Source: Candidatus Cloacimonadota bacterium (GTDB lineage Bacteria > Cloacimonadota > Cloacimonadia > G963667145). From it: a DNA stretch of 64,000 nt. Positions 8,348 to 64,000 of this stretch are shown here, piece by piece. The position numbers and the translations under genes were made by a program. Position 1 is the first letter of the stretch. Each line of letters opens with the position of its first letter. The stretch is taken from assembly GCA_963667255.1 (NCBI GenBank), contig OY762940.1:1-64000 (forward strand). The letters are read 5' to 3'. Below the pieces are notes generated by a model. The model searched no databases, was not told where the DNA came from, and saw nothing but the letters and a program-made list of their open reading frames with translations.

Positions 8348-9343
8348 TTAACTCCTTAATTTAAATATTTCATTCTTTAATTTAAATATTTCATTCTTTA
8401 ATTTAAATATTTCATTTTGTTCATAATAACCTAACCTAGTTCCTGTCTTTATTTTTTTTTTACAAATATAACCATCATAATCATATACTTCATATTTTTT
8501 AATTATAATATGACCCTTTCCTGTTTGTACTATAGGATTGTTATCAACCATATCAATGATTCTGCCCAAAACTCCTTTTATATTACAATTGTAATTTTCT
8601 GCCTCCCAAATAATAATTTTATAATTAGAATAAAATGTATAAGCACCAGGATGAGGGTGACCAGTTGCTTTAATTAGAGTTATAATGTTTTCAGAATTTA
8701 AATTCCATTCAATTAAACCATCCAGAGGAGTTCTTTTCCCATAATAAGTTGCTAAGAAATTGTTTTGTGGAACAGGTCCCCATAAACCTTTTAACAAGTT
8801 AGGCAACCAGTTATCTAAAGCGACTTTCATTGCATTAAATAATTTTTTTTGCAAAGAATTAACATTGTCATTTTTATCTATACTATAATATTCTTGTATG
8901 AATAAGGGGCCTGAATCAGTACCTTCATCTATTTGAAAAAAACTTGCGGCTCCTTTTTTATATTCTTCGATAATCATCCATGCCATTGGAGCTCTTCCTC
9001 TCCCAAAGGGTAATGGTGTAGGATGAAAACCAATGACCCCTAATTTGGGTAAATTCAATATATCTGATTTTATTAATTGAGAAAATCCGATTACAAATAA
9101 TATATCTAAATTTAGAGATTTAAGCTTCACGATGTTGTCAATTTCATTAATATTGTTATCAAATCCATAATAATCAATATTGTTCTTGTGGCAAAGATTA
9201 CTAAAATTTTCATAACCAGAAATATTCGTAATATCTTTAGGTTCATAACCAAAAACTGAAACTAAATTGGCTTTATGTTTTATAAGTGATTTAATTACAA
9301 TTGATGTGCTACTTACTGAGCCAATAACGGCAATTCTTAACAT
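8348..9343 (-). CDS. Formyltransferase (Fmt-like), probably a sugar N-formyltransferase
   Basis: GFHPTPLPFGRGRAPMAW, DEGTDSG, PHPGAYT; located in a glycan locus. Confidence 0.85.
   Translation of the reverse strand: MLRIAVIGSVSSTSIVIKSLIKHKANLVSVFGYEPKDITNISGYENFSNLCHKNNIDYYGFDNNINEIDNIVKLKSLNLDILFVIGFSQLIKSDILNLPKLGVIGFHPTPLPFGRGRAPMAWMIIEEYKKGAASFFQIDEGTDSGPLFIQEYYSIDKNDNVNSLQKKLFNAMKVALDNWLPNLLKGLWGPVPQNNFLATYYGKRTPLDGLIEWNLNSENIITLIKATGHPHPGAYTFYSNYKIIIWEAENYNCNIKGVLGRIIDMVDNNPIVQTGKGHIIIKKYEVYDYDGYICKKKIKTGTRLGYYEQNEIFKLKNEIFKLKNEIFKLRS
8356..8416. repeat. 21-bp tandem repeat (~3 copies) at the formyltransferase 3' end
   Basis: TTAATTTAAATATTTCATTCT x2 plus a 19-nt third copy; encodes NEIFKLK repeats. 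Confidence 0.9.
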
Positions 9344-53850: not shown

Positions 53851-54961
53851 GGGAGCGTGCATTTAATTGGGTCTAATTTCCACTCCTTTTGAATAATTAT
53901 TGAACCAAATTTTCAAAAAATGATTCATATTTTTTTCAGATTTAAATCCGTCTAAATTTTTTAATTTCCTATTCAATTGTCGATTAATATTTTCAATTTT
54001 ATTTGTTGTTTTATCCAAAAAATCGTAATGAAAATGAGCAGTTAATAAACCAAAGTTTCGATTAATTGATTTAATAAAACGCTTATGAATTTTTAGGCGA
54101 AAAAATTTTTCATAGTGATTAAGCGAACTTAAATTATTTTCAGCTTCTTGTAAAGTTTCAGCATTTAAAATGCTCTTAATCAAGTTCTTAAAGAAAATAT
54201 TTCGTCTAAAAAACTTACTCTTTTTTGTTTTAGGAACATTGATATTAACGCTTCTTAAATAATGAACCAAGCAAATTTGATGTGGAACATCTTCAAAAAG
54301 TTGGTTAACTGGCTTAACAAAGCACTTCCCTCGCCCAAAATCTGACACAATCCCAATTATTTTGTTGTCATACATTTTTTTTAGTCTATTCAAAAAGTCT
54401 TCAGATGAACTACTATGTTCTCTATCATAAATCTTGTAATATATTGGTTTATCAAGTAGTTTGCTACTGGCGACTAAGACAACTTTTCGCTTACCGTTTA
54501 TCTTAATTTCCTTGCCATCAATATAAATTGTTGTCTCATCTATATTGCTGTGTAACACATTATCCTGATATAAATTAGCTCGCTGAGGTATCCAATTAAG
54601 AGTACTATTTTTACAAATCCCATGTCTTTTAGCAACTTCAGAAAGAGAACTTTTGGTTGAAATATAGTCAGTAACAACCTTATCTTTGAATTTTGGTGCA
54701 AAATGAGTTCTCTTATTATATCCAAAATTGGTAAAACTTATTTGGCAATCTTTACAATAAAATCGTTGAGTTTTGACTTTAATTTTCCCACGATTAGTTG
54801 TTCTTTCAGAGAAAATATATCCCTTCTTTTTTGTGTTTAAGCTATCACAATTTGGACAGCGTTTTTTTTGATTATACTCATGGCATTTTAATAAATGTTC
54901 ATAACTTATTCTGTCAAACATAATTAGGTCTTATTTCAGACCCAGTTATTTGCACACTCCC
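53851..54961 (-). mobile_element. Second, near-identical copy of the 1111-bp IS256-like element (CDS 53863-54921)
   Basis: Same IRs; 8-bp TSD CCTAATAG, which includes the upstream gene's stop codon. Protein differs at 2 residues. Confidence 0.93.
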
Positions 54962-60572: not shown

Positions 60573-61652
60573 CTACTTATTATTACTTTCGAATTTTTTC
60601 ATGAAATCAATCAAGAAATCAACACTCTTCATAGGCATAGCGTTGTAGAAAGAGGCTCTACATCCACCTACTGATCTGTGACCCTTTAGAGACAACATAT
60701 TAAGCTTTCCGGCTTCTGCCAAGAATTGTTTTTCCAACTCTTCTGAAGGCAATCTGAAAGGAATATTCATCAAAGAACGGTCTTCCTCTACCACAGTTCC
60801 TCTATAGAAATCGGAGCTATCCAACAAATTGTATAATTTGCCAGCTTTCTCTTTGTTAATCTCATGAACGCCTGCAAGTCCGCCGTTGCTCTCTATCCAC
60901 TTGAGCACCAAACCAACTACATAGATAGTGAAAGCAGGAGGAGTGTTGAACATAGAATCTTTGCTGATGTGAACATTATAATCCATCATCGTGGAAAGAC
61001 CCTTGTTGCCACTCTCGGCAAAAGAGTTTTTGATAGCAGCCAAAACAGCTCCGGCAGGTCCCAAATTCTTTTGAACTCCGGCATAAATCAAATCGCACTT
61101 CTTGAAATCATACTCTCTGGAAAGCATATTGGAAGACATATCGGCAACCAACGGAACAGCAACATTCGGAAGCTCTTTGTATTCTGAGCCTCTGATAGTG
61201 TTGTTGGTAGTGATGTGCAAATATTTGGCATCAGCAGGCACGCCACTCAAATCTTTTGGAATGTAAGTAAAATCTTTGTCCTCGCTGCTGGCAACCACAT
61301 TGACTTTTAATCCCAAAATTTTAGCCTCTTTGATAGCAGCTGTAGACCATGCTCCTGTGTTCACATAGCAACAATCTTTTTCTTTGCTTCCAAAATTCAA
61401 GGCTGTCATCAAGAACTGTGTGGACGCTCCACCTTGCAAATAAAGGATGGTGTAATCGTCGCCCAATCCCATAAGCCTTCTGGCTCTGTCCATCGCATCG
61501 TCGATAATCGCTTGGTAATTTGCAGAGCGATGACTCATCTCCATCACGGACAAACCTTTTCCCTTGTATGAAACAAGGTCTCTTTGAACTTCCTCCAGCA
61601 CCTCCATAGGGAGAACGGCTGGACCGGCACTAAAATTATGAACTCTATCCAT
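60573..61652 (-). CDS. serC: Phosphoserine aminotransferase
   Basis: NFSAGPA, SVMEMSHRS, QGGASTQF, DMSS, QKNLGPAG, NTPP, KGHRSVGGCRAS. Confidence 0.97.
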   Translation of the reverse strand: MDRVHNFSAGPAVLPMEVLEEVQRDLVSYKGKGLSVMEMSHRSANYQAIIDDAMDRARRLMGLGDDYTILYLQGGASTQFLMTALNFGSKEKDCCYVNTGAWSTAAIKEAKILGLKVNVVASSEDKDFTYIPKDLSGVPADAKYLHITTNNTIRGSEYKELPNVAVPLVADMSSNMLSREYDFKKCDLIYAGVQKNLGPAGAVLAAIKNSFAESGNKGLSTMMDYNVHISKDSMFNTPPAFTIYVVGLVLKWIESNGGLAGVHEINKEKAGKLYNLLDSSDFYRGTVVEEDRSLMNIPFRLPSEELEKQFLAEAGKLNMLSLKGHRSVGGCRASFYNAMPMKSVDFLIDFMKKFESNNK

Positions 61653-61698
61653 AATTCCTCCAAGAAATATAATTAAATTTGTTTTGAAAAAAAAGAAA

Positions 61699-61774
61699 TG
61701 GGGTGGCTGATGGGACTCGAACCCACGACAACCAGAACCACAATCTGGCGCTCTACCACTGAACTACAGCCACC
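61699..61774 (-). tRNA. tRNA-His (GTG)
   Basis: GGTGGCTGTAGTTCAGTGGTAGAGCGCCAGATTGTGGTTCTGGTTGTCGTGGGTTCGAGTCCCATCAGCCACCCCA: cloverleaf, G-1 and encoded CCA. Confidence 0.97.
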
Positions 61775-61885
61775 ATTCATCAGTAATATTCACCAAAGAT
61801 AAAGGGGGTTCTTTTTTGTCAAACTCTTTTTGTGGGTCAGTGAGAATGTTGGGCTTGAGATAGATATTCAGTATGCATGACAGGA

Positions 61886-61919
61886 CTCGTTCCCAAGCTC
61901 CGGCTTGGGAATGCATACG
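61886..61919. repeat. REP-like palindrome (copy 1)
   Basis: CTCGTTCCCAAGCTCCGGCTTGGGAATGCATACG; inverted copy at 63816-63878. Confidence 0.8.
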
Positions 61920-61981
61920 CGACAAAGCGGATAATAGTTTTTCTGCCTCTTCTCTTTCTTATTAGTTCTCTTACAGAGGGT

Positions 61982-62019
61982 CTCCATCTTTTCTTTGACC
62001 GCTCAAAGAAAAGATAGAG
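61982..62019. repeat. Intergenic hairpin
   Basis: CTCCATCTTTTCTTTGA-CCGC-TCAAAGAAAAGATAGAG; 17-bp arms with one mismatch. Confidence 0.7.
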
Positions 62020-62280
62020 GAGAAAAGAAAACCGCTCTGACACATAGTAGCAGTCGTTGCGAGTCGCCAGTACAGAAACAAGTCCAGCGTGCTCCCGTGT
62101 ACTCTTTAAGCATTGCTATCTGTTTGGATTTGCTTTGCAGATTACAGAGATATATTTAAGACTGCTCCTAAAGGTGTCCAGAGTTTTGCCTCCCCTGCCC
62201 CACCAAGCAACTGCTTGATTCCTCTGCCAAACCCAAAAACAACCTCGTCAAAGCATGTTTGGGCTTCTTGCTTCTCTACC

Positions 62281-62306
62281 CTCATGCCTGCGGAAGCAGG
62301 TATCCA
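62281..62306. repeat. Short REP-like palindrome
   Basis: CTCATGCCTGCGGAAGCAGGTATCCA resembles the widespread GTCATTCCCGCG..GCGGGAATCCA repeat type. Confidence 0.6.
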
Positions 62307-62425
62307 TTCTTGGCTCGTTTCTTTGTCCTGTCCTACTCCACCGTGGTCAAGCACAACTATTTATAATTGTGCTTGGTGCTTTTGTGCTTGAGAGGGCGGT
62401 GGGTGGGTGCAAGGACAGGCGGGAC

Positions 62426-62466
62426 AAAAAAAACACAGGCGAGTTACCAACTCGCCTGTGTTCCGT
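62426..62466 (-). terminator. Intrinsic terminator of the FGE-sulfatase lipoprotein gene
   Basis: AACACAGGCGAGTT-GGT-AACTCGCCTGTGTT followed by a T-run. Confidence 0.88.
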
Positions 62467-62534
62467 ATCTTTTCATTTTTCATTTTTATCTTTTATTTGA
62501 TTTGCTCTGCCACAGAGCAAATCCTTCTCACACT

Positions 62535-63332
62535 TTACTTCTCCCTAACTATGCGGAAACCGGCGAATTCGTCGCGCGGTTGTGGCCAGTTACTCGAGCG
62601 ATCGGCAACTCGACAAGAACCATCGAAAAAAGAGCCACCACGATACACGCGGTACGAGCCTGTGCTGGGTCCACTGGGGTCGGTAACCGCTTCACTACTG
62701 TAGCTACCATACCAATCAGAGCACCATTCCCAAACATTACCACTCATATCATATATTCCCAGTTCATTAGCTTTTTTTGTGCCTACTGGTTGAGGGTTAC
62801 CTGGACCAGTGAAGGCTACATCACCTACAGTATTACTACCAGAATAAGTATAGCCTTTGCTTGAATTACCTCCACGGGCAGCAAACTCCCACTCGGCTTC
62901 GGTAGGTAGTCTATACTTGTCTGTGCTTTCCAGTGTATTCAATTTTGTGATAAACTCTGGCAAACTATTCCAAGCAAAATTTTCCACAGGGGCATTATCG
63001 CCTCTCACGCCAGAAGGATTAGAACCCATCACAGCTACCCATTGCTTTTGGGTTACCTCATATTTGCCGAGATAATAATCTTTAGTTATTGTCACTTGAT
63101 GCACAGGCTTTTCGTCATTGTCACCATCATTAGAGCCCATTTGGAAAGTCCCTGCTTCCACCAAGACAAATTCCATACCGATGGAGTTGGTGTAAGTGGT
63201 CGCAGTGGTGCCACCATCGTCTGTGCCGGTAGTAGTTCCAGTATCGGTACTCACGGGATTGCTACTGCTTTTGCCACACGCCGTAAGCACTACCACCAAA
63301 ATTAACAAAACTAAACTCAAATACTTCTTCAT
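62535..63332 (-). CDS. FGE-sulfatase / SUMF1-domain (C-type-lectin fold) lipoprotein
   Basis: Lipobox LTAC, Thr/Gly linker, GTFQMGS, EKPVH, GKYEVTQ, RLPTEAEWEFAARGG, GIYDMSGNVWEWC, RGGS, GFR. AGGAG RBS. Confidence 0.93.
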   Translation of the reverse strand: MKKYLSLVLLILVVVLTACGKSSSNPVSTDTGTTTGTDDGGTTATTYTNSIGMEFVLVEAGTFQMGSNDGDNDEKPVHQVTITKDYYLGKYEVTQKQWVAVMGSNPSGVRGDNAPVENFAWNSLPEFITKLNTLESTDKYRLPTEAEWEFAARGGNSSKGYTYSGSNTVGDVAFTGPGNPQPVGTKKANELGIYDMSGNVWEWCSDWYGSYSSEAVTDPSGPSTGSYRVYRGGSFFDGSCRVADRSSNWPQPRDEFAGFRIVREK

Positions 63333-63351
63333 CTATATCTCTCCTAATCCA

Positions 63352-63582
63352 TTATTTAAACACAAAAAAAGAGACAGCTCGGTAAATTCGAACTATCTCT
63401 AAACTATATAAATTTCTGTTGACTACATAACTTTCGCCAAGCCTTGACTGACTGACTGACTGACTGACTGACTGACTGACTGACTGACTGACTGACTGAC
63501 TGACTGACTGACTGACTGACTGACTGACTGACTGACTGACTGACTGACTGACTGACTGACTGACTATTCTATTCATTTTCAT
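63352..63582 (-). CDS. Putative leader ORF containing (GTCA)30 and spanning the leader terminator
   Basis: ATG plus 5 codons, a 120-nt repeat, then an open frame through the hairpin to TAA 19 nt before the lipoprotein ATG. No SD sequence; translation is not shown. Confidence 0.5.
   Translation of the reverse strand: MKMNRIVSQSVSQSVSQSVSQSVSQSVSQSVSQSVSQSVSQSVSQSRLGESYVVNRNLYSLEIVRIYRAVSFFVFK
63364..63400 (-). terminator. Intrinsic terminator in the 5' leader of the lipoprotein gene
   Basis: AGAGATAGTTCG-AATTTAC-CGAGCTGTCTC-T7. The 12-bp stem has two G-U pairs that work only in minus-strand RNA. Confidence 0.8.
63445..63564. repeat. Perfect tetranucleotide SSR (TGAC)30
   Basis: Directly visible, 120 bp. 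Confidence 0.98.
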
Positions 63583-63815
63583 ATGACGATGTTTTAAATT
63601 TTTTTATGTCCGTCAACCAAGAATTAAGAAAATTTATTATGCGGTATAAACACTATGTTTGGGCTCCCTGCTCTCTCTCCTCTCATACTCACGGTCTATC
63701 AATCACAAGGCTATTCTATTGCTTGGTGCTTTTGTACTTGAACGCAGAGAACCAGTAGGCGTAAGGACAGGATTTAAGGAACAAATAATTCTTCGTTATC
63801 GTGCTTTCTAATTCT

Positions 63816-63878
63816 CGTATGCATTCCCAAGTCTGTCAAGCATAATACATTTGTGCTTGGCTAGAGCTTGGGAACGAG
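63816..63878. repeat. REP-like palindrome (copy 2, inverted) with a ~29-bp hairpin inserted in its loop
   Basis: CGTATGCATTCCCAAG-[TCTGTCAAGCATAATACATTTGTGCTTGG]-CTAGAGCTTGGGAACGAG. Confidence 0.78.
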
Positions 63879-63960
63879 GAAGATTAGCTATATTTTAGTG
63901 GTCAGATTAGGGGAAGTTGCGAGAATGAGAGAGAGATGCGGGTGCAGGGAGCGGTGGAAC

Positions 63961-64000
63961 AAAAAAACACTGGCGAGTTCTCAACTCGCCAGTGCTCCGT
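63961..64000 (-). terminator. Paralogous copy of the 62426-62466 terminator, ending a gene beyond the window
   Basis: AAAAAAACACTGGCGAGTT-CTC-AACTCGCCAGTGCTCCGT on the plus strand. Confidence 0.8.

Follow-up and report, generated by a model that had tools for sequence, protein, structure and literature searches.

The closest described system is the pair of pilus operons pil1 and pil3 of S. gallolyticus, in which a repeat-bearing leader ORF was found by experiment to gate a transcription terminator (Danne et al. 2014, PMC3894217). At pil1/pil3, expression is low at 22+3n repeats and high at other repeat numbers, with a stop located 4 bp before the hairpin already giving the high state; deletion of the terminator results in a ~11-fold gain and mutation of the leader ATG abolishes switching (PMC3894217). 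Among the literature searched, which covered few subscription papers, a switch of this kind is reported in S. gallolyticus only, and none for Cloacimonadota. A preliminary description of the locus studied here, prepared from its sequence, had stated that no well-described switch with this architecture was known, a view that the work on pil1/pil3 overturns (PMC3894217). As described there, those operons share with the present locus and its relatives, hereafter the cassette, a non-triplet repeat in a short leader ORF, a stem-loop terminator before the first gene, a stop set by the reading frame, one low and two high phases (predicted in the case of the cassette), and a surface target. They differ in having a GCAGA unit and an SD-led ORF on a leadered RNA, in being confined to two pilus operons, and in belonging to Bacillota, whereas the cassette, from Cloacimonadota, has a predicted leaderless ORF without SD, five units of 4, 5 or 8 nt, six loci in one genome, and both lipoprotein and defence-like targets. 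With their different units, and with no sequence relationship apparent on comparison without alignment, the two systems are probably convergent.

Tetranucleotide tracts in Haemophilus mod and lic form intragenic SSR contingency loci. The G-tracts of Bifidobacterium breve pilus genes are of the same intragenic type (PMC9187656). Such loci resemble the cassette in that repeat slippage shifts the frame near the 5′ end and in their surface targets, but they carry the repeat inside the coding sequence of the switched protein, whereas the target ORF of the cassette is unchanged and has its own SD and ATG. Switches based on promoter spacing place the repeat between −35 and −10 or upstream, whereas the cassette repeat lies ~50 nt downstream of TTGAC and begins 17-18 nt after the leader ATG, which is also the predicted start site. 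The mycobacterial polycysteine LL-sORF attenuators (bioRxiv 10.1101/834739) likewise combine a leaderless short ORF, control by ribosome position and one design at several loci; they rely, however, on cysteine-sensing stalls and a structure sequestering the RBS, in place of which the cassette has a heritable repeat number and a predicted terminator. Finally, trp-type attenuators possess conserved control codons and an antiterminator helix, whereas in the cassette the repeat codons vary with unit and frame, and no consistent structure sequestering the 5′ arm of the terminator was seen (an upstream hairpin had z below −2 in 3 of 11 copies). Rfam gave no match at the cassette, only one weak and unrelated match.

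Anatomy and frame arithmetic of the window locus

The window, i.e. the whole stretch of 64,000 nt that was analysed, belongs to a genome of one contig (G000; 1.59 Mb, 39% GC), which was compared with five congeners (G001-G005). The locus occupies its minus strand and comprises the following features, listed by window coordinates.

62405..62525 (−): repeat of ~120 bp that contains a terminator, downstream copy (blastn)
62535..63332 (−): target gene, a 265-aa predicted lipoprotein with lipobox LTAC (by pattern) and an FGE-sulfatase (C-type-lectin-fold) domain (Pfam PF03781, E 3e-46)
63341..63345 (−): AGGAG, located 7 nt past the read-through stop, the Shine-Dalgarno sequence of the lipoprotein gene
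63352..63354 (−): TAA used when n=3k, the read-through stop (repeat number varied in silico)
63352..63582 (−): leader ORF, 76 aa at n=30, beginning MKMNRI and spanning the whole terminator (translation of the sequence)
63364..63400 (−): predicted intrinsic terminator with 12-bp stem, 7-nt loop and U7 (hairpin 63400-63370, U7 to 63364)
63404..63406 (−): TAG used when n=3k+1, ending 4 nt short of the first stem G-C pair; predicted ON by comparison with pil1
63423..63425 (−): early TAG used when n=3k+2, ending 23 nt before the first G-C pair; predicted OFF (low)
63445..63564 (−): (GTCA)30, a perfect SSR stop-free in all three sense frames (TRF, 100% matches, 30.2 copies)
63611..63616 (−): −35-like hexamer TTGACG, 34 nt 5′ of the leader ATG, predicted leaderless promoter
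63811..63839 (−): TTGACA-17-GAGAAT, another promoter-like site located ~230 nt 5′ of the leader ATG, a possible alternative start
63964..63998 (−): terminator-like hairpin 3′ of an upstream transporter-like gene, predicted to insulate the cassette

Every element position in the preliminary description agreed with the sequence base for base, as did its statement that the GTCA repeat lacks stops in any minus-strand frame, and changing n in silico reproduced its three phase-dependent stops exactly, with stop-to-stem gaps of 23, 4 and −48 nt. From 63582 the leader reads ATG AAA ATG AAT AGA ATA and continues into (GTCA)30, which is separated from the terminator hairpin by a 44-nt spacer; when the whole leader RNA of this locus is folded, the terminator stem shows pair probabilities of 0.82-1.0. 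Within the window, no frame joins the leader to the lipoprotein, the ORF of which starts at its own ATG at 63332. The caution that an open frame might arise by chance was justified, since the frame stays open up to the stem in 45-52% of spacer shuffles at this locus.

The best PDB match of the target protein is variable protein 1 of T. denticola (2y3c, E 1.9e-24), also known as TvpA, a lipoprotein varied by a DGR and belonging to the same FGE-sulfatase/C-type-lectin fold family. A role of the target as a DGR substrate was considered and rejected, as no reverse transcriptase was found in G000 (0 matches to PF00078), so that variation would be in expression rather than by a resident DGR.

The cassette and its gene are bracketed by two copies of the ~120-bp repeat, the upstream one at genome positions 63940-64059 being 88% identical to the downstream one; each query yields 14-15 blastn matches genome-wide, self included, corresponding to about a dozen genomic copies. 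Transcription of the lipoprotein gene most likely must pass the leader terminator, since terminator-like hairpins lie on both sides and no TTGAC occurs within 125 nt after the repeat; such a sense TTGAC is equally missing from all 10 copies of the cassette that were checked. The second promoter-like site is weak (1 found versus 2.6 expected in shuffles). The gene content of the interval upstream of serC (window 61652-63998) is variable, as G000 and 4 of 5 congeners carry different lipoprotein-like genes there (L152-L156), and none of the scored congener matches places a cassette in this slot. Contigs from sequencing run X1 provide error-free pieces across 62400-63444, which is the interval that they cover. 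Elsewhere in the window, a 21-bp tandem repeat is present in 2.9 perfect copies at 8356-8416.

A family of repeat-bearing leaders in the genus

In this genome and its relatives, the cassette occurs at 11 sites in five genomes: six in G000 (63k, which is the window locus, 131k, 898k, 983k, 1390k and 1480k), two in G001, and one each in G002, G004 and G005. In G000, blastn, nhmmer and an RNA model all led to the six known copies and to no further repeat-bearing one. In the congeners, 150 candidates were scored per genome, and 20 of 25 matches at E up to 1 carried no repeat; the G004 copy was outside the training alignment of the model that found it, and G003 showed no copy among its 150 scored candidates. 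When the RNA model R1 was applied to 151 genomes of the phylum, with 27 candidates scored per genome and many assemblies fragmented, real cassettes were recovered only within the genus; the 145 genomes outside it gave three marginal matches (E 0.007-0.01), which are terminator-like hairpins without repeats. Pattern searches of JGI metagenomes returned 0 matches in one case and 5 in another, none with a repeat or U tract, and a pattern search of viral contigs returned 0.

All 11 copies share one layout: TTGAC, an ATG 34-35 nt later (in the 9 of 9 aligned copies as well as in G004 and G001_1223k), a short run of AT-rich codons, the repeat, a 38-49-nt spacer containing GTCAA, and a hairpin. The leader ATG is not preceded by an SD, and the leaderless transcript that the preliminary description raised as a caveat is thus the predicted normal form of the cassette, which moreover matches a class of genes in G000. 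That class consists of 28 ORFs whose first ATG follows TTGAC by 33-38 nt, only one of which has an SD-like motif, versus 498 of 1244 ORFs overall (ORFs called mechanically); TTGAC-to-ATG distances in this genome are bimodal, at 34-38 nt without SD and at 52-65 nt. A sigma-70 consensus scan missed the leader promoter of the window locus, which has no clear −10 box, and neither the cassettes nor the genome-wide TTGAC set yielded a −10 consensus.

The 1.59-Mb genome contains six perfect repeats of period 1-9 that reach at least 60 bp, and all five with non-triplet units are found in the cassette. The remaining tract repeats a 9-mer in frame (7.6 units, Pro-Thr-Thr) within the linker at the N terminus of a predicted lipoprotein (G000:C1:1329830-1329897). 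The sixth G000 cassette, which shares its flanks with the five long-tract copies, has only a 21-bp AGTC tract; this short tract, at 898k, is invariant in the single contig per run that spans it. Logan contigs matching the stretch come from 4 runs, representing at most 3 samples of 1 study, and no RNA run is listed among them. Across the family, AGTC occurs in 30, 21, 9, 5, 5 and 3 units and CAGTT in 18.8 and 22.8, while single cassettes carry 9.6 copies of TCAGTTGG, 8.4 copies of TCGGTCAG, and a compound tract ending in CGTG (5). Neither the CAGTT-type nor the 8-mer-type tracts were found in the five congeners. The five unit types, AGTC, CAGTT, TCAGTTGG, TCGGTCAG and CGTG, are 4, 5 or 8 nt long, none of which is a multiple of 3; none contains a sense-strand stop, while 4 of 5 have an antisense stop. 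As random units are stop-free 53-72% of the time, the combination is only suggestive of leader translation. The ORF runs without stops from the ATG into the repeat in all 10 copies that could be translated, the eleventh having an IS at this position. The frame that reads through varies among copies and the leader peptides are unlike each other, as would be expected if the position of the ribosome matters rather than its product; the leader peptide itself is likely irrelevant.

Pairing in the predicted terminator stem is kept. Of 96 cells in the 8 copies that have the main type of hairpin, 97.9% are paired, and two pairs have changed on both sides; pairing drops to 35-58% when the alignment is slid, and 9 of 500 shuffles were as high as 97.9%, although related sequences can exceed such shuffles without structure. 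A different second hairpin occupies the terminator position in 131k and G002.

Exported proteins follow 9 of the 11 copies. Eight are predicted lipoproteins with an N-terminal lipobox, containing FGE-sulfatase, C-type lectin, F5/8 or PPC domains or no Pfam domain, and one has a signal-peptide-like start. The other two copies, both of the CAGTT type, are followed by defence-like genes, namely a LeoABC-like (LeoBC/LeoA) dynamin pair and an EcsC (PADLOC PDC-S29)/TerB pair (L150:1962-5867 and L151:3307-5134), and both of these islands end in a nearly identical 127-aa GIY-YIG gene. They are possibly phase-variable defence islands, with both cassettes now damaged.

Damage affects three of the six G000 copies (131k, 898k and 983k). 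An IS of the Mutator family, with a target duplication of 8 bp, is inserted between the ATG and the repeat at 131k, and between the terminator and the gene at 898k, so that 2 of 6 cassettes in G000 harbor this element; both junctions were confirmed in contigs of runs X2/X3, which may represent the source sample. The terminator at 983k lacks a U tract. An inversion or misassembly between 131k and 983k was considered and dropped once the 131k ATG had been located beyond the IS. The Mutator/IS256-family element has expanded in G000, being present at window 53863-54921 and ~18 other sites (~19 copies of one end), and, judging by contig depth, run X1 is likely to have far fewer copies than X2/X3.

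Stop positions, probable coupling and the predicted switch

How far a stop must lie from a terminator can be gauged from the genome itself. Of 95 gene-end terminators in G000, 89 start 16 nt or more downstream of the stop codon, most often at 17-23 nt, whereas the first 15 nt hold just 6, which gives the distribution an abrupt lower limit of 16 nt; under two other cut-offs, the count was 102/113 and 69/73. A short stop-to-terminator distance serves as a published proxy for uncoupled transcription (review, PMC7858274). Because its gene-end terminators avoid the first 15 nt after the stop, G000 looks transcription-translation coupled, and the 16-nt edge suggests that coupling in this lineage is tight; NusG and Rho are both encoded, and a Met-rich leader with a terminator, described below, points the same way.

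On this ruler, the distance from the end of the stop to the first G-C pair of the stem (in nt, negative when beyond it) takes the following values in the three repeat phases; 983k was left out as its terminator has no U tract.

63k: 23/4/−48
898k: 25/3/−1
1390k: 27/5/−44
1480k: 29/24/−44
131k: 31/−15/−34
G001, two copies: 29/7/−48 and 31/9/−13
G002: 30/11/−41 (interrupted U tract, passed the finder only when relaxed)
G004: 32/6/−50
G005: 26/19/9

In all 10 copies with whole terminators, one phase, predicted OFF, stops at 23-32 nt, an ordinary gene-end distance, and one, predicted ON, at no more than 11 nt or inside the stem, and none of the 30 stops falls at 12-18 nt. The pattern of one OFF to two ON phases known from pil1 is seen in 8 of 10 copies versus 2.4 expected (p 2e-4 against shuffled spacers), a p value that overstates the case, as the pattern was defined post hoc and the spacers share a common origin (36-77% identity, 100% in one pair). 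The mere presence of at least one OFF and at least one ON frame, in turn, occurs in 68-85% of spacer shuffles per locus, for a joint probability of ~0.07, which is near chance. Frames reach the stem in 9 of 11 copies versus 6.5 expected (p=0.11); the rule put up for testing in the preliminary description, that exactly one frame is always open across the terminator, fails in the remaining two (G005_814k and G000_898k), in which no frame runs into the stem.

The assembled alleles correspond to read-through in 63k and G004, to near-stem stops in G005 and G002, and to early stops in 1390k, 1480k and both G001 copies, although an assembled consensus repeat length need not equal the majority state. 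The window allele, with n=30, is predicted to be ON, as had been proposed, but so are two of the three phases rather than one. The n=3k+1 phase, previously regarded as intermediate, is more likely ON, given that pil1 alleles in which the stop lies 4 bp ahead of the hairpin are expressed at a high level and that so few gene-end terminators lie within 15 nt of a stop. We thus predict two ON phases to one OFF at the window locus, with OFF being low rather than zero.

The anatomy, the frame arithmetic and the recurrence at 11 sites before different genes can be read directly from the DNA. Taken with them, the repeat-bearing leader ORF, the predicted terminator and the predicted surface-lipoprotein gene likely make up a phase-variable transcription attenuator of the pil1 kind, and we hold this reading with good, though not full, confidence; the cassette is real and probably functional. 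The core of the preliminary model, in which the repeat frame gates the arrival of the ribosome at the terminator, has gained support from ten other copies, from genome-wide stop-terminator spacing and from experimental precedent, while being a prediction in this organism. RNA polymerase would start at or next to the leader ATG, a ribosome would load on the leaderless 5′ end and trail the polymerase closely, and slipped-strand mispairing would add or remove GTCA units. At n=3k+2, the ribosome would leave 23 nt before the stem, an ordinary gene-end spacing, so that the hairpin could fold and most transcripts would end (low). At n=3k+1, with the stop 4 nt before the stem, or at n=3k, the read-through state of the assembled allele, the ribosome would cover the 5′ arm, no hairpin would form, and the lipoprotein gene would be transcribed (high). 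Repeat length would in this manner flip the downstream gene between low and high at random, and the lineage, by reusing the cassette as a plug-in, would vary several surface proteins independently.

Leader length may add a further constraint. Terminators within the first 100 nt of an E. coli ORF are still almost fully active and barely relieved by ribosomes, according to the review (PMC7858274). The distance from ATG to stem is ~180 nt in the window copy and ~70-100 nt in four short copies, which, given the E. coli effect, might fail to switch; by the same analogy, tract length may also set how well the ON state works.

Two other leaders with terminators were observed in these genomes. A leader ORF rich in Met (37 aa long in G000, where it lies at G000:C1:1410182-1410520, minus strand, and featuring a run like MMMRMYGMMMSM) is followed by a terminator-like hairpin and precedes a homocysteine-biosynthesis gene (PF01837) in G000, G004 (L036) and G005 (L038), making it a candidate methionine-sensing ribosome attenuator. 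A leader and terminator also precede the start of a RibD-like gene in G002 (L022) and G005 (L040), at ~1350-1600, and this leader resembles an FMN riboswitch.

Competing readings and the place of the cassette

The best-surviving alternative is that length rather than frame matters, the tract acting as a runway or loading site, in that a longer tract would let the ribosome catch up with the polymerase or would offer Rho an unstructured UC-rich stretch, so that expression would be graded with n and n mod 3 would be of minor effect. The repeat RNA is predicted to be unstructured, Rho is present in G000, the ATG-to-stem distance ranges from ~70 to 180 nt across copies, and ribosome antitermination is described as increasing with distance from the start codon (review, PMC7858274); recognition of UC/CC dinucleotides by Rho, as stated in a recent preprint (bioRxiv 10.1101/2025.08.25.672197), was also counted in its favor. 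A pure length device, however, would have no need for all five units to be non-triplet and stop-free in the sense direction (the random stop-free share being 53-72%), nor would it account for stops that form two clean classes. Rho sites are C-rich, whereas in the tracts G equals or exceeds C. We therefore regard replacement of the frame switch by a length effect as unlikely, although such an effect may add to it.

One feature is left unexplained by the attenuator model, namely the role of GTCAA (63419..63423, minus strand, at the window locus), which recurs unchanged in 11 of 11 copies, 19-23 nt after the repeat and next to an AT-rich stretch, although the rest of the spacer varies; a second GTCAA or GTCGA, often ~22 bp from the first, closes most repeats. 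As GTCAA is TTGAC on the opposite strand and the repeat itself reads TGAC there, the leader could be untranslated and the cassette a DNA-level device, in which GTCAA would be an antisense promoter or protein site and the repeat would set its distance or phase to the sense promoter. An antisense promoter at GTCAA is, however, unsupported by a promoter profile derived from this genome, which scores the antisense sites in the 35th-94th percentile versus the 88th-97th for the sense sites, and the A2/T6 −10 pattern is missing from 9 of 10 antisense sites. Nor does it fit with an ATG that is invariant at the predicted start and opens a frame into the repeat, or with units of 4, 5 and 8 bp, which have no helical phase in common, and we consider the DNA-level reading very unlikely. 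It is highly improbable, finally, that the cassette is a neutral relic, a small promoter-terminator element spread with imported lipoprotein genes, with functionless microsatellite growth and weak leak-through expression. In favor of this reading are the damage to half of the copies in G000, the position of the locus among repeated elements and in a variable slot, a per-locus frame pattern near chance, and the lack of a copy among those scored in G003. Against it, all five long non-triplet tracts of the genome are perfect and in cassette position, the same slot has repeatedly acquired different units, and five species have retained the start, the length of the spacer and the pairing of the terminator.

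If the frame-gated attenuator is accepted, it is quite possible, though we put this forward only tentatively, that the genus has made the switch a portable leaderless plug-in, i.e. one family with different units, and so different switching rates, placed before unrelated operons of lectin-fold lipoproteins and before dynamin-like/EcsC defence islands, which would generate a combinatorial repertoire of surface and defence states without coding changes, with tract length tuning the ON level via the distance over which the ribosome catches up. Although the mechanism itself is published, it is unusual for a cassette family to be leaderless and portable, to use several repeat units and to come with its own calibration of the distance between ribosome and terminator. 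Such switches escape annotation, as the target gene is intact and the repeat falls between genes. Together with the 16-nt edge, the eleven copies found in these genomes offer a series for asking how near a terminating ribosome must be to its terminator, and whether leaderless initiation couples fast enough. Within the literature searched, demonstration of the mechanism is confined to one species, and its leaderless multi-copy form in a distant phylum would reveal a general, convergent route to phase variation. The cassette also suggests that these uncultured bacteria with reduced genomes may vary their surface under pressure from hosts or phages.
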